Positions 18,826 to 29,686 of a stretch of 64,000 bases of DNA are shown here, in pieces (positions within the stretch are counted from its first letter, which is position 1; each line of letters begins with the position of its first letter). The stretch covers positions 64,300-128,299 of the forward strand of contig JBDHLB010000002.1 of the NCBI GenBank assembly GCA_039586095.1, read 5' to 3'. A model generated the notes under the pieces. It was not told where the DNA came from and ran no database searches. It saw nothing but the letters and a program-made list of their open reading frames with translations. A program made the translations under genes and the position numbers. Source of the stretch: Gemmatimonadota bacterium (GTDB taxonomy: Bacteria > Gemmatimonadota > Gemmatimonadetes > Palauibacterales > Palauibacteraceae).

Positions 18826-21800
18826 CTACCTCTCTACCGGACCCAGGTACTCGTCCAGCCAGGCCAGGGTCTCCTTGATGAACTCGCTCCGGGGCGGGAT
18901 GTGGTCGGTGTCGTAGAGGATGATCTGCTTGTGCTCGGCCGGCGTTCCCAGCAGATCGAACATGGGCTTGATGCCCGCATCGATCCGCACATCGTACTTC
19001 CCGTTCAGCATGAGCGTGGGTTTCCTGACCCGCGTCACGTAGTTGAGCGGGTGCACCTCGGGCCTTCCGAGGTCGAGTAGAGCCCCTGCCAGCAAAACGT
19101 TGGTGACGATGCGCTCCTCCACCGCCGGAATGATCGCTCCAAGTGCGCCGCCCATACTCATTCCGTAGTAGGCGATCTTCTCGCTGTCGATGTCCTCGCG
19201 CGTCTCGAGATAATCCAGGCTTCTTCGGAAATCCCTGACGACCTGGATCGTGAATTCGGAATACTGGTGGGACCTACTCTGCGGCGGCGGAGCCGGCATT
19301 CCGGGAACCTGCCGCTCGAATGTTCCCTTATAGACCGGATAGAGCACCGCGCGCCCGTTCGTCAGCAGGTAGGAGAGGAACATGGGGAACTCGTAGTAGT
19401 TCTCCAGACCCTCGCTCGACGCCGTGAAGGTAGAAGCACTCCCGGGGAAGTAGACGACCGTCTGGAAGGGAGGCGGCGTGTTGGTCGGAAGGAACAGGTG
19501 GGCTATGACCCGCTCACCGCCATAGGCAGCGTCGAAGGTGATCTTCTCCCGGATCCACCCTCCCGGGCCCTCCTCCCTGGACTCCACTCGAGCGTTGAGC
19601 GGTGTCTCGTCGTAGGAGAATTGCTCGCTGTAGATCTGGAAGATGTCATCGGAAACCGGCTGTTGCGCCCGAAGATCGGTGGGTGGACCGAGAGGCAGGA
19701 ACGCGAACGCGGCTTCGGGCACCGTCTCGGGATCCCGATAGACGGCCAGCCTGAAACCGTTGTTGGCCGAACGATCCATGGGTGGCGCCTGACGATTGAC
19801 GTTGAAGTCGTAGGTGTTGCCGTCCCACGCGCCGCCTCTGATAAGTCTTCCCTGCGGGGTCTCGTTCCAGCACCACTCCCGCACGTTGCCGGCCATGTCG
19901 TGCGCCCCATAGGCGGTGATGCCGCGGAGGCTACCGACCGGAACGGGCCCCTGGCCTCCGAAGTTGGCGAAGGGGGCAAAGACGGCGAAGCCTCCGAGCT
20001 GTGGCCACATGATCATCGGGGTGAAGCCGCCGCTCGCCGCATGCCAGTGGATGCCAGTAGGCAAGGTAGCGCCCGCATACTCCGCATACGCCGCCGCCTC
20101 GTACCAGCTCACTCCCGAGACCGGGTACTCCTCCCGGCCTGCGGGATAGTCTCCTCCCATCCAGCTGGAGGGGCCGGGCTGGCCCGACGGATCGACGAAC
20201 TCCCGCATAGCCCAGTCCCAGCTGATCTCCTCTCCGTCCTTTACGAAGGGGTGCCGCCAGTACTCCCGGTTCCTGTACCCACCCGCGTCGACGAAGCGCT
20301 TGTATTCCCGGTTCGTGACTTCGTACTTACCGATGAAGAAGTCATCCAGGGTGCCGCTGGGCGTGTCCGTGCTCTCGACCCGCACCATTCCAAGTGGAAC
20401 GCCGCCCTCCCGATCCAGCGTGCGAACGAGCTCGTACGGGACGAGGCCGACCCCGATTCCCTGTCTCGTCTGAACGGTAGGATCGAAGGCCCAGGTGGCG
20501 GCTGCTGCATGGACCGTCTCGTGCCTGTCCAGCTCGATCTTCCATCGGAAAATCCCCACGGGCACGCGCGCGCCCTCGAGGGGCGAGTCACCCAGGTAGG
20601 TCCACTCGGCATCAGGGTCCGCGAACTCCTTCATGTAGACGCGGGCGCCGGGCGGTGTCGTCCGCACGTTCATGTCCATGGCGACGCGGGAAAACACGTC
20701 GGCCAGCGCGGGGTCGTCCCCGAGGACGGCTTCGGCTTGCTCAGCGAGGCGATAGGGCGGTACGAGGTTGCGCCAGGTGTCGTTCTCCGCGATCAGCCGC
20801 TCGATCTCCGGGAGGGCCACCTCGCGCGCCCACGCTACCTCGGCGCGATGCTGGAAGAACCAGACGGTGGACGCTGCAACCGCTACGACAGCCAGCCCGG
20901 TCGCGATGGCCACCCGTGGCTGACGGAGGCGACGTACGAGCGATCGAATGTTGAAAACGCCGGCCGCCTCGGCGCGGAGGACTTCGGAGTATTTCCGGAG
21001 GTCCTCCACGATCTCCTCCGCCGAGGCGTAGCGGTCCGCGGGGTCCTTCTTCAGCGCCCGATCCACCACACGCTGGAGGGCGCCAGGAACGGGCGGTTCG
21101 CGGCGCGGGATGGGTCTCGGGTCCTCGTTCAGGATGTTGTAGATGACCGCAAGGTCGTTGGCGCCGACAAACGGCATCTCTCCGGTGAGCAGTTCGTAGA
21201 ACACGACTCCGGCTGACCACAGGTCGGATCGATGATCGACCTGCGCCCCGGACGCCTGTTCGGGCGACATGAAGCCGACCGTGCCGAGCGTCGTCTGCGT
21301 CTTGGTCAGCGACTCTCCGCCGTGGAGCTTGGCCAGTCCGAAATCCATGATCTTCGCCTGGCCCTTGTCCGTGATCATGATGTTGCTGCTCTTGATGTCA
21401 CGGTGGATGATGCCCTTGCCGTGGGCTTCGCCCAGCCCTCTGGCCACCTGCTCCATGAGTGCCGCGACCTCTTCGGTCGCCAGTGGCTCACGCTTGACCC
21501 TCTGCCGGAGCGTCTCCCCTTCGACATACTCCATCGCGATGAAGGGCAGGCCTTCATCCTCTGCCACCTCGTGAATGACGCAGATATTCGGGTGGGAGAG
21601 GGCCGCGGCGGCCTGTGCCTCGATGAGGAAGCGCGATCTGAGTTCGTCCAATGCAGCCAGGTGAGGAGGCAGGAACTTGAGGGCCACCCAGCGCTTGAGC
21701 TGCGTGTCACGGGCCTTGTAGACGACGCCCATCCCCCCGCGGCCGAGCTCCCGGGCAATCTCGTACTTTCCGCCGATCAAGCGATCGGTCGCCGCGAAAT

Positions 21801-21954
21801 CGGGTGTGTCGTCGAGTGGCTGATCTGCTGGGGGATCACTCTCGTGTTCAACCAGGCCCTCGTCACCGGCATGCTCGCCATGGAGAGGTGCCGAGCACTG
21901 GCCACAATACTTCGAATCGGTCGCGTTCTCGGAATGGCAGCGAGGACATTTCAT
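18826..21954 (-). CDS. Multidomain Ser/Thr protein kinase: Zn-ribbon, STK, TM, FGE-sulfatase (SUMF1) and alpha/beta-hydrolase
   Basis: ATG 21954 gives 'MKCPRCHSEN..YCGQC' (zinc ribbon). The kinase has 'HRDIKSSNIM', 'DFG' and 'SPEQ'. The TM helix is 'IATGLAVVAVAASTVWFF'. FGE-sulfatase blocks are 'FFIGKYEVTNREY', 'PVSGVSWYEAAAYAEYAG' and 'AGNVREWCWN...RGGAW'. The C-terminal hydrolase has the nucleophile elbow 'GMSMGG' and 'DTDH'. The track ORF (to 22545) is an N-terminal over-extension; ATG 22008 is an alternative start. Confidence 0.85.
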   Translation of the reverse strand: MKCPRCHSENATDSKYCGQCSAPLHGEHAGDEGLVEHESDPPADQPLDDTPDFAATDRLIGGKYEIARELGRGGMGVVYKARDTQLKRWVALKFLPPHLAALDELRSRFLIEAQAAAALSHPNICVIHEVAEDEGLPFIAMEYVEGETLRQRVKREPLATEEVAALMEQVARGLGEAHGKGIIHRDIKSSNIMITDKGQAKIMDFGLAKLHGGESLTKTQTTLGTVGFMSPEQASGAQVDHRSDLWSAGVVFYELLTGEMPFVGANDLAVIYNILNEDPRPIPRREPPVPGALQRVVDRALKKDPADRYASAEEIVEDLRKYSEVLRAEAAGVFNIRSLVRRLRQPRVAIATGLAVVAVAASTVWFFQHRAEVAWAREVALPEIERLIAENDTWRNLVPPYRLAEQAEAVLGDDPALADVFSRVAMDMNVRTTPPGARVYMKEFADPDAEWTYLGDSPLEGARVPVGIFRWKIELDRHETVHAAAATWAFDPTVQTRQGIGVGLVPYELVRTLDREGGVPLGMVRVESTDTPSGTLDDFFIGKYEVTNREYKRFVDAGGYRNREYWRHPFVKDGEEISWDWAMREFVDPSGQPGPSSWMGGDYPAGREEYPVSGVSWYEAAAYAEYAGATLPTGIHWHAASGGFTPMIMWPQLGGFAVFAPFANFGGQGPVPVGSLRGITAYGAHDMAGNVREWCWNETPQGRLIRGGAWDGNTYDFNVNRQAPPMDRSANNGFRLAVYRDPETVPEAAFAFLPLGPPTDLRAQQPVSDDIFQIYSEQFSYDETPLNARVESREEGPGGWIREKITFDAAYGGERVIAHLFLPTNTPPPFQTVVYFPGSASTFTASSEGLENYYEFPMFLSYLLTNGRAVLYPVYKGTFERQVPGMPAPPPQSRSHQYSEFTIQVVRDFRRSLDYLETREDIDSEKIAYYGMSMGGALGAIIPAVEERIVTNVLLAGALLDLGRPEVHPLNYVTRVRKPTLMLNGKYDVRIDAGIKPMFDLLGTPAEHKQIILYDTDHIPPRSEFIKETLAWLDEYLGPVER

Positions 21955-22344
21955 GAGGCTTCGATCCTTGATCGCACATGAATGCCGCACAGGAGACGAC
22001 TTCGGCATGAGAATAAAGCCTTCCCAAAGCCATTGGTAGATCGCCCGGCGCGACCCCCCGGTTGTGGTACAGCGTCCGGTCGGACGTTGCCGTCTCGCCA
22101 CACAACCCCCTCCGCGTACCACGGCGAGACACTCGTCGCCGATTCGTGGCAAAGGCGTGACACCGACTGTTTCTCCAGTAAACAAGCGGCATTCCGGGGA
22201 TGAGTTCGTCCGGAAACTGGCGAGAGGTCCGTGCGGGCGTATTTTTTGAACCTTCCACCGCTCGCTCCGGGGCCCATCGCCACACAGCGGGGCGTGGGGA
22301 ATGGGCGAAAAGTGATCCGCAAACTGCGGAAGATGCCGTAAAAT

Positions 22345-24069
22345 ATGGAGATAGGGGATCTGGTGGCGCGGGACCTCAAGGGAGACACCGAAAGAGGACC
22401 GAACGGCCGCCAGGACGGGGATTTTCCCGGCGTGTACGTCGCCGATGAGGAGGGCTCCGAGCCGGTGGTGCCCAGGGGAATGGGCCGATGGCATTATTCT
22501 CCCAGCACCGGCCAGATGTCCCGCGTCCGAGAGCTGCTCGAGCAAGGGAACATCTCGCTAATCCTGCCCACCGAGGTGTTTGTCCACTTCTACCCCGCCA
22601 GCCCCGAGCAGGTGATCAACGCCGCCTACGCCGCAGGCTTCAACGAGCTGTACTTCGAGACCCTGGGCGACGAGCTCGTCGCCATGGAGTACCTGCGACA
22701 GTGGCGTGAAAACACCGACAAGAAGACCTGGATTCGATCGACCAGCCCGCTGCTCGTCGAGTACTGCCGCTGGCGCCATCCGGAGCTGCTCGCCTATCTG
22801 GCGCCGATCGTGACTCCGCCAGTCGCCCTTGCCCGCTACCTGAAACGACAGTTGGGCGACGACAGGAGAATCGTGTACGCCGGACTCGACTTCCCGGCCA
22901 CCAACGGACATGAAGAGTTCGCTTCGCACATCTCCTTTCCGGAGCTGCAGCACCTGTTCGAGGAGCGCAGAGCGAGTCCCGGAGAGCAACCCATTCTTCT
23001 GCGGGTGATGCCGCCGGACCTCAGGCGATATCTGGCGGCACCCGGCGGCCTTCCTCTTCCCATGCTGGATCAGGAGAGGGCCTCCTCCCGCACGTTCCGG
23101 AAGTTGCGCGGGCTCCACACCCTGGAGGGACTCGCGGAGCTGGTGCAAACACCGGAAGGTCAGCAGCTGGGCTTCATCGACGTACTACCGTTCGATGGGC
23201 TGCTGGATCACCCCGCGCTGGGTGATCCGAACCGGCTGTACTGGCGCCGCAGCCTGCTTCAGCTGGCCGAGCCGGCACGTTCGGAGCGGCCGATCATCTC
23301 GGTGCCGGACGACATTGATCTTTCGACCTCGTTCCCGCCACGGGAATCCACCCTGCCGGAGGACGAGATCCAGGAGGTCGTGCGGGCCCTGGAGGAAGTC
23401 GGGACCACCCACGACGGCGGTGTGTGGAAGACGGATCCGCTGGGCTACGCGCGCTATCTGTCACTCACCGAATCGATCATGCGCTCGCGGCCCGAGCTAG
23501 CCGTCGGACTGTTCCACATGAGCCGCAACTACTCCCGTGCCGTGCGGGACGCGACCCACGATGCGCTCACCGACCTGTACAGCTATCGAGCGCTCGTGGA
23601 GCGTGTGCGGGAGGAGATGGGTCAGGCGAATCGTGCTGGATCCTCGATCGCCATGTTGTTCGTCGATCTCGACGACTTCAAAGAGATTAACGATAGGTAT
23701 GGGCATCCGACGGGGAACGAGATCCTGAAGGGTGTGGCGAGCGTTTTGCAGCAGAGCATGCGTAGCACGGACATCGCCGGTCGGTTCGGAGGCGACGAGT
23801 TCGTCGTGCTGCTCGTCGATTCGGACGAGAACGGCGCCGTGCGGGTCGCGGAACAGATTCGCGAAGGTGTAGCCGGCACCTTCGTGGAGATCCCCGGCGG
23901 AAAGGTCGGTACCACGGTGAGCATCGGTGTGGCATTTCATGACGCGGCGACGCGCGCACTCACCTCGAGCGACGAACTGTTCGCGGAAGCCGATGCCTCG
24001 CTGTACATTGCCAAGGCCCAGGGGGGCAACCGTGTCCATCCAGCGGTGAGGGAAGGGACTCCTCAATGA
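22345..24069 (+). CDS. Diguanylate-cyclase-type GGDEF protein with N-terminal cysteine-less [FeFe]-hydrogenase-like (Fe_hyd_lg_C-like) domain
   Basis: C-terminal GGDEF: 'LFVDLDDFKEINDRYGHPTGNEIL', I-site 'RSTD' and 'GGDEF' (23788-23802). The N-terminal ~290 aa is collinear with hydrogenase H-domain blocks but lacks all H-cluster cysteines (see findings). The start is uncertain: ATG 22345, 22480 or 22516. A TAAAAT -10-like box at 22336-22341 would favour the downstream starts. Confidence 0.8.
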   Translation: MEIGDLVARDLKGDTERGPNGRQDGDFPGVYVADEEGSEPVVPRGMGRWHYSPSTGQMSRVRELLEQGNISLILPTEVFVHFYPASPEQVINAAYAAGFNELYFETLGDELVAMEYLRQWRENTDKKTWIRSTSPLLVEYCRWRHPELLAYLAPIVTPPVALARYLKRQLGDDRRIVYAGLDFPATNGHEEFASHISFPELQHLFEERRASPGEQPILLRVMPPDLRRYLAAPGGLPLPMLDQERASSRTFRKLRGLHTLEGLAELVQTPEGQQLGFIDVLPFDGLLDHPALGDPNRLYWRRSLLQLAEPARSERPIISVPDDIDLSTSFPPRESTLPEDEIQEVVRALEEVGTTHDGGVWKTDPLGYARYLSLTESIMRSRPELAVGLFHMSRNYSRAVRDATHDALTDLYSYRALVERVREEMGQANRAGSSIAMLFVDLDDFKEINDRYGHPTGNEILKGVASVLQQSMRSTDIAGRFGGDEFVVLLVDSDENGAVRVAEQIREGVAGTFVEIPGGKVGTTVSIGVAFHDAATRALTSSDELFAEADASLYIAKAQGGNRVHPAVREGTPQ

Positions 24070-24791
24070 GGGAAGAGTCTAGGGAGGTGGAGGTCAGGGG
24101 GATGGACCCCTGGGGTCTGCGTCGTGTCGAGCAGCTCCTCCAAACCGTCGAAGGTGTCAATTCGCTCAAGCTCGTCCCAGACGAGCGTGGCGGGATTGAC
24201 GAAATCCACGTCCTCAGCAGCTCGAGTCTCGGGGCGAAGCAAATCGTTCGGAACATCGAGTCTGCCCTTCTCGCCCAATTCGGGCTTCAGGTAGACCACC
24301 GCAAGATCTCCATTGCCCAGGTCAAGGATCAGGGCATCCCGCTGGCCGAGGTCGTCGCGCAGGCGGAAGAGGCCCTAGGGGCCCCGCCAGCGCCGCGGCG
24401 TCTGGTCATCGAGGGATTCCAACTCGAACGCCATGCCGGCGAAAGCGTGGTGTGCCGGGTCGAGCTGCGATCGGGAGAGAACACCTACGAAGGAGAGGCG
24501 ACCGGGCCGGATTACGCGCGCTCCCGCCTCGAGATCGCGGGTCAGGCGGTACTCAACGCCCTCAGCAAGGTAGCCGATGGAAAAGCCTCCTTCGCGATCG
24601 AGGGCGTGACGCAGATCGAGTTGTTCAACCGGGATCTCGTGATCGCGATGGTGCAGGCGTTCGCGGGTCGCCGGCCGATCAACCTGCCCGGCATCGCAGA
24701 GATCCGGGACTCGATCGAGGAGAGCGTGGTCTACGCCTGCTTGAACGCCGCCAATCGATGGATCGGTAACCTCCCCGAGCCCGGGGAGTAA
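24066..24791 (+). CDS. Hypothetical protein (241 aa), translationally coupled to the GGDEF gene
   Basis: ATG 24066 overlaps the GGDEF stop (ATGA). High GC3. No motif I can name. It reads as two alpha/beta halves ('GVNSLKLVPDERGGIDEIHVL...KQIVRNIESAL' and 'VCRVELRSGENTYEGEATGPDYARSRLEIAGQAVLNAL'). Confidence 0.7.
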   Translation: MREESREVEVRGMDPWGLRRVEQLLQTVEGVNSLKLVPDERGGIDEIHVLSSSSLGAKQIVRNIESALLAQFGLQVDHRKISIAQVKDQGIPLAEVVAQAEEALGAPPAPRRLVIEGFQLERHAGESVVCRVELRSGENTYEGEATGPDYARSRLEIAGQAVLNALSKVADGKASFAIEGVTQIELFNRDLVIAMVQAFAGRRPINLPGIAEIRDSIEESVVYACLNAANRWIGNLPEPGE

Positions 24792-25058: not shown

Positions 25059-26378
25059 ATGCTGCAAGATCACCGCTTGCGAGCGTTCCTTATCTTTGTA
25101 GTCGGGGCCGCTAGCGCTTCGCTGCCAGCTTCGTTTTGGCTGTACCCGCCGCCCATCACGCCTGATTGGCTGCTCGCGTTCGTAACCCTCTTAGCCCTCG
25201 CGATCGTAGGGGCAATCCTAGCTCTCAAGATTACCGAGGGAGGCAGTACAACTTCCATGGAGTTCGTGCCTCAACTCGGCGCGATCCCATTGCTTGGGCC
25301 AGCGGGCGCGATCACGCTAACTCTTGTAACGCAGTTCTTCACCGAATTCCTGTTACTCAAGAAACCGACACAGAAGGCGATCTTTAATACAGCTCAGGTA
25401 GTCCTCTCCGTAATGCTCGCGAGCTCTCTGTATATAGCTTTCGGGGCCCGACCTAGTCTTGAGGCGCTCTCTGTCGCAGGCACTTTCCCACCATTTCTTG
25501 TCGCGGTTGTTGGTTACTTTTCGGTAAATACTGTTTCCGTTTCTTATGTGATTTCGCTCGTCGAGAAGCGGCCTTTCCGTGAGGTCTGGCAGCGTACTGC
25601 AGGGAGCATCATTGTCTTCGATTTGGCCATTAGTCCACTGGCGTATCTCGTTGCATACCTCTACGTGCAGTGGGGCGCTGCTGCGCTGCTGGCAGCGATT
25701 ATCCCAATCATTGCTCTACGCTATACCTATGGCGTCAACATTGAGCTTCAGCAGCTGAACCAAGACTTGCTTCGTGTCTTGATTAAGACTCTCGAAGCAA
25801 GGGACAAGTACACATCGGGTCATTCGTTGCGAGTTGCCGAACGGTCCAAGAGAATTGCTCAAGCGCTTCAACTTCGACTTTCTGATGTCCGGATTATCGA
25901 GACTGCCGCACTCTTACATGATATTGGAAAGATTGACCTTGCTTACGGAGACATCCTTCGGCAGTCTGGCCCCCTCAGCCCTACGCAACGCGAGTTGATC
26001 CGCTCACATCCGCAGAAGGGCGTTGATATTATCGGAGGCGTTCGCGCCCTTGACCCAGAGGTCTTGAGGTGTGTCCGACACCATCACGAATGGTACGATG
26101 GCTCCGGCTATCCATCAGGAATTGCCGGTGCCGACATCCCGTTGGGCGCTCGAATCATCATGGTGAGCGATTCAATAGATGCGATGTTGACGGATCGACC
26201 TTATCGCTCCGCCCTTAGCGTCGAGCAAGTTCGGCAGGAAATCATTCGTAATACATCAACGCAGTTTGACCCGTTGATCGTCGAAATCGTGATGGAGGAA
26301 GGGATTCTGGAGGAAGCGCAGTCTGCTTTTGAGCGTACCGTGTATGTTCATGGTCGCCCAGCCGTGGCTCTCGATTAG
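25059..26378 (+). CDS. Membrane-anchored HD-GYP domain cyclic-dinucleotide phosphodiesterase
   Basis: About 7 N-terminal TM helices, followed by 'GHSLRVAE', 'LLHDIGK' and 'HHEWYDGSGYP' (HHExxDGxGYP), i.e. an intact HD-GYP catalytic set. Confidence 0.9.
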   Translation: MLQDHRLRAFLIFVVGAASASLPASFWLYPPPITPDWLLAFVTLLALAIVGAILALKITEGGSTTSMEFVPQLGAIPLLGPAGAITLTLVTQFFTEFLLLKKPTQKAIFNTAQVVLSVMLASSLYIAFGARPSLEALSVAGTFPPFLVAVVGYFSVNTVSVSYVISLVEKRPFREVWQRTAGSIIVFDLAISPLAYLVAYLYVQWGAAALLAAIIPIIALRYTYGVNIELQQLNQDLLRVLIKTLEARDKYTSGHSLRVAERSKRIAQALQLRLSDVRIIETAALLHDIGKIDLAYGDILRQSGPLSPTQRELIRSHPQKGVDIIGGVRALDPEVLRCVRHHHEWYDGSGYPSGIAGADIPLGARIIMVSDSIDAMLTDRPYRSALSVEQVRQEIIRNTSTQFDPLIVEIVMEEGILEEAQSAFERTVYVHGRPAVALD

Positions 26379-26386
26379 AGTAAAAG

Positions 26387-29300
26387 CTAAGACTGCGCGT
26401 GTAGGCTGGTATCTCTGCACCAGCGCGACGCACAACGAACGAACCAACCGAGACCTATTGCTCTGAGTTGACGTTTGAGCGTTTGAGTGTTTTCACCGCT
26501 GATTTGATCGGCAACACCCCGACTACCGAAGACGCGTACCAAGCTCTCGTGCAGCCACAGGAGTTTTAGATAGCCAATCAAGTCCCGGGGCTGCTCTTCC
26601 AGAGCCGCATCTTTTAGTTGACGAACGGCGGCTTCGTTGTTGCGCAGGATCTTCTGAACTGCTGCAAGAAACCACTCAGCCTTGAATCTCTCTTGGACAC
26701 CGACTGTGCCAAGCTGCATCAATCCGTCGACGCGTTCCCACAGCGATTCGGCCTCGCTCCAGCGACCCAATTGAAGAGCCACAAGTCCCCGGGTGGAATA
26801 CACTTCGATCGCCGACGACTCTAATGAATTCCGGTCGCACATGGCAACCGCTCTCGTGAGTCGTTCCTCGGCCTCGCGTAAGCGTCCCTGATAGAAGTAT
26901 CCAGTTGCCAGGTTGAGCAAAGGCGTCAGCGCTAGGTGCGTCCCCGCGGAAAGGGAATCGTCGAGTCTCATACACTCGTAGCAGTACGTCTCTACTCGCT
27001 TCCAGTCTCCCCTTTCCAATGCCAAGCAAGCTAAGTTGTTCGAAAAGTGAGCCTGAAACAGCAGATCCTCTGACTGGGCTGCTCTCTCGAGCCCCCTTGA
27101 GAGAACAGTATCAGCAGTACCCCAATCCGCCTGACGAATGTGTATCATCGACCGGGCCAAGAGGATAGACAGGTGTGAGCGAGTGGAGCATTCCGCTGCC
27201 GTTTCGGCGACAGAATCCAGCATCACCTCGGCTGAAGTCAGCGACTGGGCAAACAAATTGTGAATAGCAAGCGTATAGGCAGCTTGAACAATCGACTCCG
27301 GCTCAGCTAACTGCCTCTCGGCACTCCGCAGGATCAAGGTGTTCAGTCTTTGGCTCGTCGTCAGAGCAGTCTCTCGGTCCTCTGTGAGCACGCTCAGTTT
27401 GAGGCGGAGCGACAGAATCCTCAGCAGATGGGTGTTGGTCGCCGAGCCACCGCCGGAGTTTTCAATCCCCGACTCCGCGCGTACGAGGGTGTCTTCGGCT
27501 GCTAACCAGTCACAACACTCAATCTGTCCGCTCGCCAAAAGGATTTGAAGTTCGTAGTGATTATCGAGAACCTGATCCACATCCCTGTCAAGAAGCTCTT
27601 CCAGGACGTTGCACAGTTCTTGGTACTTACCCAGCCGCTCGTATGCTTTGGCCGCGAGCAACAAGGCATCGACTGTCTCGGTTCTCGTATGCGCAGTCGA
27701 TGTCGCTACCCTAGCTAGCTTGGCGGCTCTTTCGTTCTCAAGGCGATCAAGTGCCTTGGCACACGCTCGCATAGCAGTCTCGTATGCGTGACCATAGTTA
27801 CGCGATCGCTCATAGTGTCGCGCAACGACGAGCATGTCGACTCCGGATTGGTGCTGTGCCAAATGTTCTGCTGCGCTGAAATGCAGGGCGGCCCTACGAA
27901 GCTCTCCAATCCGTGCATACACAAACTCGCGCAGAATCGGATGCTGGTACGAACATTTTGCCGCGTCGCCCCTCAGGATTGAACGCTTCTCTAGCTTGCT
28001 GGCGGCGTACATAGACTCGGTTCCGGTGAGACCAGCTACCTGTCCAGCTAAGTACAATTGGGCAGAACCATCTAGCACACTTGAAGCCTCCAGGAGCCTG
28101 ACTTCAGTACCCGAGAGAGATTCAACGCGCGTCGCAAGACTGTTTCGGAGTCTGTCTGTCAAATAGTCGGAAGGCCGCTCAGGCTCCTCACGCCGATTTG
28201 CCACGGCACGATTCATTTCAAGAGCAAAGAATGGGTTGCCTCCGCACAATTGTGCGATGGCCTCGCGGTGATCATTTGCCAATCGACCGTTGGAAGCGGC
28301 ATTCAAAAGATCCCTGACCTCCCCAGGCGCCAATGCACCTACATCAGCAATGTGAGCATTAGCGCAGACAGCGACATCGTCTAGCAGGCGGCGCAGTGCG
28401 GATCCGACATCTCGCGAAGTGTCATAGGCGAGAATGACGATCAGGGGTCGAGATTCCATCCGATCAAGGACGTAGCTAAGCAAAGCCGCCGAATCCAAGT
28501 CAAGCCACTGGATGTCATCAAGGATCAGACAGATCGGGCCATGTACGAAAGTCTGGTTGAGAACGGCCATCATCGCGTCCCTGATCTCCGTTAGGTCTGG
28601 AGATGGAGGTTTGGCCTGACTTGTGTAGTTCTCTGGCTCAGGACCGGGATATGGACTGAGTAGTTTAGATAGGGCTGTAAGGCGAGTTGATGAGGGACTG
28701 GAAGGCACTCCGAAAGCTTCAAGAATTGCTCCGAGCGGTCGGTGCATATCCGTAGCGCGACATCGACCTCTCAGGACCTTGTAACCATTTGAGACGGCGA
28801 GACTCTGCGCCTCTTCGCACAAGCGCGTTTTGCCAATACCGGTTTCGCCACGAAGGAGGAGAACGGTCGAACCTACGTTATGTGCTGCGGCAAGCAAGCG
28901 TCTGAGAATAGAGAGTTCGCGCCGCCTGCCACACAGCGTTGTAGTTGGCACGCCGGTTGAGCCCGACTCGATCGCAACTCGGCTAGCAGACTCTATCCGA
29001 TTCCTCAAAGCAAGCAACTCGCGCGACGGTGGGACCCCCAACTCTCTTCGAATCATAGAGGCTGTATCATCGAATTGCTGAAGCGCTGATCGTGGATCAC
29101 CTCCTAGCCAGAGTGCCTGCATGAGGTGCAAGTGTGCATCTTGGTCCAGGGGATCCAGCGTGACCAGCTTTGCTGCCGAAACGCACATTTCCGCCCAGGC
29201 TCCAGCTTGTTCACACGCCCGCACGTACTTTCGCAACGCGTTGACGGCAAGCAGCTTGTAGTGGGCTCTCTGCTGTTCAAGCCATTCTTCGAATTCTCTC

Positions 29301-29686
29301 GTCCCTGTGTCATCTAAGTCTTCCGCGAACTCTCCACGGTAGAGCGCCACGGCCTCGCTCTGGTTGTCTTCTCGTAGCAGGTCTTCAAAATGGGCAGCTT
29401 CGTAATCGATACCGCTCGCATTGACTGTAAGCCAGCCAGAGCGCGTAGTAATCCTCAGGTCCGACACGCGCTTTCGTATATCGTATAGAGCTTGACTTAG
29501 GGAGTGCCTAGATCGCTCGCGCTTACCGACCCAAAGGAGCTTTGCTAACTGGCGTCGGGACATAGCCCGATCGGAGTTGGCAACCAGATAGAGCAGCAGA
29601 GCGAGGTGCTTCCGCGACCGCAGTCTCGCCTCAATGCCGCCGGACAAAGTGATCTTGGTCTGGCCAAAACAGCGAAGTGTCAACAT
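26387..29686 (-). CDS. SARP/AfsR-like regulator: OmpR-type wHTH, BTAD, STAND/AAA ATPase and TPR-like repeats (1099 aa)
   Basis: The N-terminus 'MLTLRCFGQTKITLSGG...RKHLALLLYLV...LAKLLW' is a SARP winged helix. 'ALYRGEFAEDL...EWLEQQR' is the BTAD. Walker A 'GETGIGKT' and Walker B 'ICLILDDIQWLD'. The long helical-repeat C-terminus follows. It is convergent with HD-GYP across an 8-nt gap. Confidence 0.85.
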   Translation of the reverse strand: MLTLRCFGQTKITLSGGIEARLRSRKHLALLLYLVANSDRAMSRRQLAKLLWVGKRERSRHSLSQALYDIRKRVSDLRITTRSGWLTVNASGIDYEAAHFEDLLREDNQSEAVALYRGEFAEDLDDTGTREFEEWLEQQRAHYKLLAVNALRKYVRACEQAGAWAEMCVSAAKLVTLDPLDQDAHLHLMQALWLGGDPRSALQQFDDTASMIRRELGVPPSRELLALRNRIESASRVAIESGSTGVPTTTLCGRRRELSILRRLLAAAHNVGSTVLLLRGETGIGKTRLCEEAQSLAVSNGYKVLRGRCRATDMHRPLGAILEAFGVPSSPSSTRLTALSKLLSPYPGPEPENYTSQAKPPSPDLTEIRDAMMAVLNQTFVHGPICLILDDIQWLDLDSAALLSYVLDRMESRPLIVILAYDTSRDVGSALRRLLDDVAVCANAHIADVGALAPGEVRDLLNAASNGRLANDHREAIAQLCGGNPFFALEMNRAVANRREEPERPSDYLTDRLRNSLATRVESLSGTEVRLLEASSVLDGSAQLYLAGQVAGLTGTESMYAASKLEKRSILRGDAAKCSYQHPILREFVYARIGELRRAALHFSAAEHLAQHQSGVDMLVVARHYERSRNYGHAYETAMRACAKALDRLENERAAKLARVATSTAHTRTETVDALLLAAKAYERLGKYQELCNVLEELLDRDVDQVLDNHYELQILLASGQIECCDWLAAEDTLVRAESGIENSGGGSATNTHLLRILSLRLKLSVLTEDRETALTTSQRLNTLILRSAERQLAEPESIVQAAYTLAIHNLFAQSLTSAEVMLDSVAETAAECSTRSHLSILLARSMIHIRQADWGTADTVLSRGLERAAQSEDLLFQAHFSNNLACLALERGDWKRVETYCYECMRLDDSLSAGTHLALTPLLNLATGYFYQGRLREAEERLTRAVAMCDRNSLESSAIEVYSTRGLVALQLGRWSEAESLWERVDGLMQLGTVGVQERFKAEWFLAAVQKILRNNEAAVRQLKDAALEEQPRDLIGYLKLLWLHESLVRVFGSRGVADQISGENTQTLKRQLRAIGLGWFVRCASRWCRDTSLHAQS

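Follow-up and report, generated by a model that had tools for sequence, protein, structure and literature searches.

A GGDEF cyclase of Gemmatimonadota with a cysteine-free hydrogenase-like sensor domain and asparagine at the base-recognition position

In a 64,000-nucleotide stretch of DNA from a Gemmatimonadota bacterium (GenBank assembly GCA_039586095.1, contig JBDHLB010000002.1, positions 64,300 to 128,299 of the forward strand; hereafter the window), we examined a gene that encodes a GGDEF cyclase joined to a sensor module resembling the H-domain of [FeFe]-hydrogenases. Sequence and structure comparisons indicate that the H-like domain is a maintained, cofactor-free pseudo-hydrogenase and not a decaying remnant. 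In the alignments, both positions known to determine guanine selectivity are replaced across the family, the residue equivalent to PleD Asp344 by Asn and the cross-dimer Arg by Tyr or Phe (compare GacA). A preliminary description of the sequence had noted the hydrogenase-like sensor and the Asn; both features proved real, whereas their treatment as properties of one protein did not hold, since the invariant Asn and the features that accompany it are the signature of a phylum-wide family. It had also missed the second determinant of the Hypr GGDEF enzymes, in that the cross-dimer Arg is replaced too.

The protein has 574 residues and contains a single Cys. Its start codon is uncertain, and the alternative start is Met58 at 22516. 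Existing database labels for the family are 'diguanylate cyclase' with PF02906 and PF00990. The gene and the parts of its input module are as follows.

22345-24069, forward strand: gene for the hydrogenase-relic sensor and GGDEF cyclase, 574 residues, translation checked, identical to the public protein P0001
22345-22515, forward strand: N-terminal 57 residues, predicted to be disordered, without Cys; AlphaFold2 predicted local distance difference test score (pLDDT) below 50 for residues 1-54
22516-23334, forward strand: Cys-free fold like the [FeFe]-hydrogenase H-domain, residues 58-330, from Pfam PF02906, a profile against PDB, AlphaFold2 and Foldseek
22735-22749, forward strand: L1 relic, RSTSP for TSCCP, from alignments; Cys-retaining clade D relatives read RSTCP
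22882-22896, forward strand: L2-region relic, GLDFP for MPCxxK, with neither Cys nor Lys, approximate alignment; clade D reads GVC(L/I/V)
23185-23214, forward strand: L3 relic, LPFDGLLDHP for xxCPxGCxxGG, from the second stretch of the 7qv7_D alignment; clade D reads LPC(E/D)GCLDHP
23425-23520, forward strand: relic of the C-terminal [4Fe-4S] site (Cx2Cx4Cx16C, PF04060), all four Cys replaced, running into the GGDEF linker

The sensor domain keeps a hydrogenase fold

The assignment of the N-terminal module to the Fe_hyd_lg_C (H-domain) family, made earlier by eye, is upheld by a Pfam match above the cut-off, by a family profile searched against PDB, and by an AlphaFold2 model compared using Foldseek. 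The Fe_hyd_lg_C (PF02906) match covers residues 85-173 with 36.4 bits against a curated cut-off of 22.1, and it is partial, spanning profile positions 25-116 of 245. The Cys-retaining relative P0114, which is 42% identical over 94% of the search query (residues 58-404), matches positions 24-242 of the 245 with 65.8 bits. When the N-terminal region was searched against PDB as a single sequence, no match was significant and the family profile was needed. When the profile of the family's N-terminal domain was searched against all PDB sequences, it gave nine significant matches, all of them [FeFe]-hydrogenases, with E-values from 1e-5 to 5e-4. A weaker second stretch of this alignment (7qv7_D) covers L3, where GFvDilpf-eGal stands against FVEVMTCpEGCI. 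When the full-length model was compared with known folds, GGDEF structures were all that it matched, and we therefore modelled the N-terminal domain alone. The AlphaFold2 model of residues 58-334, built from 63 sequences, reached a pLDDT of 94.8 and a predicted template-modelling score (pTM) of 0.92. All 50 PDB matches listed by Foldseek for this model were [FeFe]-hydrogenases, with E-values down to 5.7e-10 and TM-scores of 0.60-0.70 on the query. The match of the hydrogenase-like domain is far beyond chance.

The cluster ligands of this fold are gone. None of the four Cys that ligate the [4Fe-4S]H cubane is present, their sites reading RSTSP, GLDFP and LPFDGL. The earlier statement that every H-cluster Cys is replaced thus stands for L1 (RSTSP) and L3 (LPFDGL), and is less certain for L2 (GLDFP), where the Cys of the Cys-retaining relatives lies two residues upstream of the position aligned by the hidden Markov model (HMM). 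The environment of the [2Fe] subcluster, consisting of the L2 Lys, the proton-relay Cys of L1 and the GGGQ of L3, is absent from the window protein and also from the Cys-retaining relatives. Both outer elements of the group C/D architecture of sensory [FeFe]-hydrogenases, the N-terminal 2x[4Fe-4S] domain and the C-terminal Cx2Cx4Cx16C motif, are likewise missing here and present in relatives P0029-P0086 and P0103-P0120. By alignment, the disordered N-terminal 57 residues stand where relatives have a 2x[4Fe-4S] ferredoxin domain, whose CxxCxxCxxxC motifs occur in clades B, D and E only. Residues 361-392 (WKTDPLGYARYLSLTESIMRSRPELAVGLFHM) align with WDCGACGHxxCxxFAEAxxRxRATLxxCPYY and are predicted to be helical, and AlphaFold2 places helices 365-381 and 383-402 over this relic; PF04060 itself matches in P0114 and P0030.

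We then considered whether the domain might bind a metal or redox cofactor through other ligands, for example His289, Asp279 and Glu or Asp residues, and serve as a sensor of redox state, H2 or O2. Several polar residues are invariant across the clades with and without Cys, namely Asp279, His289-Pro290 beside the L3 relic, Arg131-Ser132-Thr133 in L1, Glu88 and Gln89, as a cofactor site would lead one to expect. However, the residues that replace the ligands differ among the Cys-less clades (Ser, His, Asn or Asp at L1; Phe, Tyr, Thr or Ser at L3) and are often bulky hydrophobics, and this variability argues for a filled cavity and not for a new metal site. The protein moreover has its single Cys, and even the Cys-retaining relatives have no Lys at the 2Fe site in L2. 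A sensor of this kind is improbable in our view, and the H-like domain of the window protein is very probably cofactor-free.

The ratio of nonsynonymous to synonymous substitution rates (dN/dS), calculated against an 87%-identical orthologue (L157), was lowest in the linker (0.05), with 0.08 in the GGDEF domain and 0.15 in the H-like domain. Apart from the ligand sites, about 29-42 positions (the number varies with the sequences compared) are the same in all clades, among them the polar residues E88, Q89, N92, D109, E110, R131, R227, R228, R255, D279, H289 and R301. Because of this purifying selection and these invariant positions, the domain appears to be maintained rather than decaying.

Descent from sensory hydrogenases

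A search with residues 58-404 retrieved 598 relatives. In species-representative genomes, relatives are encoded in 476, the nearest being 87% identical. Among the best 80 of the 476, the labels were Gemmatimonadota or Gemmatimonadales except for three labelled 'uncultured bacterium' and one 'Myxococcaceae' metagenome-assembled genome.

The relatives show the clusters at different stages of loss. In the Cys-retaining clade D (P0103, P0105-P0107, P0110-P0114), RSTCP, GVC and LPC(E/D)GC supply four Cys that coincide with the [4Fe-4S]H ligand positions or lie close to them. All members of this clade carry the C-terminal Cx2Cx4Cx16C motif (PF04060) between the H-domain and the GGDEF domain, and most carry two N-terminal CxxCxxCxxxC ferredoxin motifs. 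Since even this clade lacks the L2 Lys and reads CxxC instead of CxxxC in L3, a [2Fe] subcluster is unlikely, judging from these motifs, anywhere in the family. In other clades the Cys of the H site are gone while the ferredoxin clusters are kept, as are the C-terminal clusters in most of them. In the clade of the window protein (P0001-P0028) all three cluster sites are lost. The sites are also largely lost, with scattered Cys only, in a clade that reads GGDEL (P0087, P0091-P0093, P0095-P0098, P0100, P0101, P0108). In this clade, and in L201 and L209, which belong to it, GGDEL stands for GGDEF and the N-terminal ferredoxin region is half decayed.

An N-terminal 2x[4Fe-4S] domain, an H-domain and a C-terminal cluster together form the unifying feature of the putative sensory group C/D [FeFe]-hydrogenases (PMC13104023). 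Because the Fe-S-bearing relatives share this three-part layout, the input module almost certainly descends, in architecture and in evolutionary origin, from a sensory [FeFe]-hydrogenase of the group C/D type. The sensory enzymes of these groups (TmHydS and TamHydS; M2f/M2e) have the same domain order as the Fe-S-bearing members of the family and end in a signalling output (PMC13104023), and the window protein keeps their H-domain fold. They differ from the family in several respects. Their output is a PAS domain or none, whereas that of the family is GGDEF; even the Cys-retaining relatives have no L2 Lys and read CxxC rather than CxxxC in L3; and the Fe-S ligands of all three of their modules are lost in the window protein. 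HydS has been studied in anaerobic Firmicutes and Thermotogae, while the family is found in Gemmatimonadota. A check of the cluster ligands showed them to be missing, and the window protein is therefore best read as a derivative of the group C/D architecture, neither a hydrogenase nor a member of the group. The eukaryotic Nar1/NARF/IOP1 proteins also have the H-domain fold, have lost hydrogenase chemistry and were recruited to another role. They keep Cys-ligated [4Fe-4S] clusters, whereas the window protein has none and is fused to a cyclase.

Asparagine at the base-recognition position

The output domain has the following features.

23551-24033, forward strand: GGDEF domain, residues 403-563, Pfam PF00990 E = 3e-39, TIGR00254 1.4e-45
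23581-23586, forward strand: Ser413-Tyr414, where LTGLxNR has Asn-Arg; Tyr414 lies opposite GacA Tyr304, the cross-dimer base-stacking position
23716-23718, forward strand: Asn458 at the position of PleD Asp344 and GacA Ser348, from alignment and column comparison
23761-23772, forward strand: I-site RSTD (RxxD), conserved across the family
23788-23802, forward strand: GGDEF active-site motif

The GGDEF domain had been described as intact, and we found it so, with Asp441, Lys446, Asn449, the GGDEF motif and Lys557 all present; these residues, and also Glu485, are invariant in the family. The coordinates given for the Asn458 codon (AAC), RSTD and GGDEF were all confirmed. Two placements agree on the proposed equivalence of Asn458 to PleD Asp344. 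When the domain is aligned to the Hypr GGDEF of Geobacter (6d9m), Asn458 lies opposite the selectivity residue Ser348, and an ungapped count from Asp441 (PleD D327) and Asn449 (PleD N335) puts it at PleD D344. In other GGDEF domains Asp344 is described as essential for activity and is conserved in strict c-di-GMP (cyclic dimeric GMP) producers (PMC7288161; PMC9140294).

All 112 family proteins with the motif have Asn at this position, as do 78 of 78 species loci, and it is kept without exception across 40-65% sequence divergence. To set this against a background, we collected 120 exact metagenomic matches to back-translated RFGGDEF, a pattern that excludes the position in question. About 113 of them were real GGDEF domains, with Asp in about 100, Ser in 11, Gly in one and Asn in one, the last being an unrelated membrane cyclase. 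A second background came from searching a representative library with the GGDEF domain, where multi-GGDEF proteins predominated: the 148 closest cluster representatives, drawn from 1.84 billion proteins, contained 243 GGDEF domains, 240 of them with Asp and three with Asn, one of the three being a family member. A scan of viral contigs for RFGGDEF gave about a dozen real GGDEF domains, a small sample, all with Asp at the position. Asn is thus rare outside the family, at about 1%, and the possibility raised beforehand that it is common among ordinary diguanylate cyclases was not borne out (1 of about 113 metagenomic and 3 of 243 representative domains).

When columns were compared between 101 family and 81 background GGDEF domains, Asp made up 96% of the background at the PleD-344 position. 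The equivalent of PleD R446 was Gly in 91% of the family and in 11% of the background, and the Lys or Arg that precedes the ADxAxY motif is Ala in the family. A scan of the window and of the sequence flanking 84 related loci turned up no further GGDEF gene.

The cross-dimer residue and its covariation with asparagine

The Arg at the cross-dimer position (Idiomarina R537, PleD R300) is 94% conserved and stacks by a cation-pi interaction on the guanine of the opposite site, favouring guanine; Hypr enzymes that make 3',3'-cGAMP (cyclic GMP-AMP) carry Tyr, Ser, Ala or Gln instead, and the Y304R substitution in GacA shifts the product towards c-di-GMP (PMC6456294). In our comparison, the Asn and Arg of LTGLxNR were present in 93% and 89% of the background, versus Ser or Thr followed by Tyr or Phe in the family, and the cross-dimer residue was Tyr or Phe in every readable family member. 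Asp-type domains of the metagenome sample had Arg or Lys there in 85 of 90 cases. When the window GGDEF domain was compared with PDB sequences, its top match was the Hypr enzyme GacA (6d9m, 115 bits), with Tyr414 opposite Tyr304 and Asn458 opposite Ser348.

The two replacements also go together beyond the family, in that all 16 Asn-type GGDEF domains found outside it lack the cross-dimer Arg and carry Tyr, Phe, His, Ala or Gln. A single ancient Asn clade was considered and rejected, as Asp-type domains score equally high against the family HMM. Because the outside Asn-type domains form no one clade with the family, these data suggest, at the level of sequence, that the pairing of Asn with a non-Arg residue arose repeatedly. 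The outside domains (P0121, P0189, P0269, P0270, P0287, P0305, P0327, P0329, P0332, P0333, P0340, P0356, P0357, P0374, P0377 and L050:898-1893) are attached to GAF, REC, HAMP, histidine kinase and membrane inputs, and both GGDEF and GGEEF motifs occur among them.

The metagenome sample also contained GGDEF domains with Ser at the selectivity position (motif GH[LVCM]xGSxA[LI]), on contigs L054, L062, L064, L093, L104, L114, L119, L123, L145, L146 and L150. All ten that were readable lack the cross-dimer Arg. This Hypr-like Ser signature made up 11 of about 113 domains (about 9%) in our small sample of RFGGDEF matches only, versus 0.17% in the literature (PMC9140294).

Compared with the Hypr GGDEF enzymes (GacA, GSU1658/Gmet_1914; Bd0367; GacB), the window domain is alike in its non-Asp selectivity residue, its cross-dimer Tyr, its GGDEF rather than GGEEF motif and its retained I-site. 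It differs in having Asn where they have Ser or Thr, in its hydrogenase relic where they have REC or GAF inputs, and in its linked HD-GYP phosphodiesterase, which reads RxxR and not Rxx(Q/N). It therefore carries two of the three sequence features set out for Hypr enzymes and has Asn where the third calls for Ser or Thr (PMC6456294). With the canonical diguanylate cyclases PleD, WspR and DosC it shares the fold, the GGDEF motif, the metal and phosphate ligands and the RxxD I-site, and it differs from them in Asn for Asp344, in Ser or Thr followed by Tyr or Phe for the Asn-Arg of LTGLxNR and, in the family, in Gly for R446. Two defining features of strict diguanylate cyclases, Asp344 and the cross-dimer Arg, are thus absent.

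Since every catalytic residue is intact, the domain should be an active cyclic-dinucleotide synthase. The alternative is a catalytically dead GGDEF domain acting as a receptor for nucleotides or cyclic dinucleotides, or as a scaffold. Two substrate-contacting positions are non-canonical, the R446 equivalent is mostly Gly, and one clade reads GGDEL, all of which would fit such a loss. Degenerate receptors, however, normally lose the GGDEF motif itself, whereas here the motif is invariant together with the metal-binding Asp441, Lys446, Asn449, Glu485 and Lys557, the domain is under strong constraint by its dN/dS, and Gly at the R446 position is found in background GGDEF domains as well. We regard a dead domain as very improbable.

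Genomic neighbourhood

Downstream of the cyclase gene lie three genes that recur, wholly or in part, in related loci.

24066-24791, forward strand: conserved partner gene, 241 residues, coupled in translation to the cyclase by a start overlapping its stop (ATGA)
25059-26378, forward strand: MASE9-HD-GYP membrane phosphodiesterase, from Pfam and synteny; HHExxDGxGYP at 26079-26114, RPYR (RxxR) at 26196-26207
26387-29686, reverse strand: BTAD/AAA_16/TPR regulator, convergent to the HD-GYP gene

In 71 related loci, among them those of the Cys-retaining clade, the cyclase gene is followed directly, and in the same orientation, by a relative of the gene for the 241-residue partner. The partner gave no sequence match in Pfam, NCBIfam or PDB, even as a profile. 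It has more than 6000 relatives, nearly all labelled 'hypothetical protein', and all organism labels among the 120 listed are Gemmatimonadota. By eye, its C-terminal two-thirds contain two repeats that end in helices of the form G-x-A-x-G...A-A-x-A-V-L-x-A-L.

Next in order comes the MASE9-HD-GYP gene, both in the window and in about 30 of the roughly 35 loci whose flanks are long enough. The regulator, which is SARP-like and of about 1000-1130 residues, is present in three of the four related contigs examined (L002:10110-13157, L003:10110-13499 and L006:10171-13461), while the fourth, L005, stops short of this point. The regulator may belong to the same module.

On the other side of the cyclase, a long divergent open reading frame (18826-22545, reverse strand) shows by eye a zinc-ribbon-like start, a Ser/Thr kinase, a part like formylglycine-generating enzyme and a C-terminus like prolyl oligopeptidase (S9). 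Its listed TTG start overlaps the cyclase reading frame, and the real start is probably downstream, near MKCPRCHSEN. Two small reading frames of 78 and 99 residues with no Pfam match precede the cyclase at L003:5024-5568, L004:5024-5568 and L006:4965-5506 (reverse strand); they are absent from the window, where the kinase gene lies upstream. An Rfam scan of the window found no riboswitch or other Rfam family, including no cGAMP riboswitch, and a scan for promoters and terminators gave nothing above shuffled expectation.

Proposed mechanism and nucleotide selectivity

We propose that the sensor input is no longer H2 or redox state read through iron-sulfur chemistry, and that the H-domain scaffold would relay a signal to the GGDEF dimer through the C-terminal cluster's helical relic. 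The source of the signal, we would speculate, is most likely the co-transcribed 241-residue partner or a small ligand. The output would be an 'Asn-type', Hypr-like cyclase with relaxed purine selectivity, making c-di-GMP along with cGAMP and/or c-di-AMP. The carboxamide of Asn458 could pair with guanine (N1-H to O, NH2 to O6) or, when flipped, with adenine (NH2 to N1, N6-H to O). A flippable carboxamide is likewise the logic of the 'glutamine switch' of cyclic-nucleotide phosphodiesterases. In GTPases, replacing the Asp of the NKxD motif by Asn switches the enzyme to XTP. The Rxx(Q/N) motif of the cGAMP HD-GYP enzymes (bioRxiv 10.1101/600031) would follow the same logic as proposed for Asn458, and a Tyr at the cross-dimer position would be able to stack on either purine (PMC6456294). 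The adjacent MASE9-HD-GYP enzyme would degrade the product, which would make the locus a self-contained local module. Relaxed nucleotide selectivity is favoured because of the Asn, the replaced cross-dimer Arg, the covariation of the two and the position of GacA as the nearest solved GGDEF; by analogy with the Hypr enzymes we give it close to an even chance. The explanation as a whole, including the selectivity claim, falls a little short of even and is tentative.

The main alternative is that the protein is an ordinary diguanylate cyclase that makes c-di-GMP only, perhaps with lower affinity. Asn458 would then bind guanine through its carbonyl oxygen, the Asn/Tyr pair would be neutral or tune affinity, and the HD-GYP enzyme would degrade c-di-GMP. 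Several observations count against relaxed selectivity and mostly fit this alternative. First, HD-GYP enzymes specific for cGAMP read Rxx(Q/N), those for c-di-GMP read Rxx(K/R), and the Q518R substitution converts PmxA to a c-di-GMP enzyme (Wright et al., bioRxiv 10.1101/600031). The linked enzyme has the canonical guanine-reading RPYR in the window and in 32 of 32 orthologues, and not Rxx(Q/N). By analogy, this motif suggests that c-di-GMP is a physiological substrate, if not necessarily the only one, and it is the main evidence against an exotic product. Second, the RxxD I-site of the c-di-GMP type is conserved and all catalytic residues are canonical, although GacA keeps RxxD too. Third, about 6% of the Asp-type domains in the metagenome sample carry neither Arg nor Lys at the cross-dimer position, and since such domains exist, a changed specificity does not follow from the absence of the cross-dimer Arg by itself. 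Fourth, the margin of GacA in the PDB comparison is small (115 versus 110 bits for DosC). Finally, only Ser and Thr have so far been validated experimentally at the selectivity position, our literature search found no biochemical data for any Asn-type GGDEF, and the protein is called a diguanylate cyclase in every source.

An ordinary cyclase is nevertheless difficult to reconcile with the essential role described for Asp344 and its retention in strict c-di-GMP producers, and with the universal presence in the family of a residue so scarce elsewhere. It is also hard to explain, if the pair is neutral, that Asn never occurs with the guanine-favouring Arg in the 16 outside cases. We consider the ordinary cyclase a real possibility, though one we would not expect to prevail. 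The evolutionary series and the covariation of Asn with a non-Arg residue are solid, while a new product specificity is a hypothesis that the linked phosphodiesterase contradicts in part.

In a wider form of the proposal, Asn-type GGDEF domains would be a second, hitherto unrecognised class of purine-promiscuous or adenine-accepting cyclases with several origins, and the Gemmatimonadota version, with its fossil hydrogenase, 241-residue partner and HD-GYP enzyme, would constitute a phylum-wide second-messenger pathway based on a dinucleotide other than c-di-GMP (cGAMP, c-di-AMP or another). This wider form is, at present, unlikely.

Implications

Our literature search found no paper on a hydrogenase-like domain fused to GGDEF, on a Cys-free bacterial H-domain, or on Asn at this GGDEF position. 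The family offers a natural series of decay in a metalloenzyme sensor, from four clusters to three to none, in which the fold and the signalling output are kept. This series bears on how the group C/D sensory hydrogenases transmit their signal, and on whether they need Fe-S clusters to do so. The conserved three-gene cassette is also brought to light, with a middle gene from a family of more than 6000 proteins without known function. Asn at PleD-344 together with a non-Arg cross-dimer residue provides a testable signature of a possible new GGDEF specificity class. Should Asn-type enzymes use ATP, the annotation of cyclic-dinucleotide signalling as c-di-GMP signalling would be wrong for Gemmatimonadota and for several further lineages.

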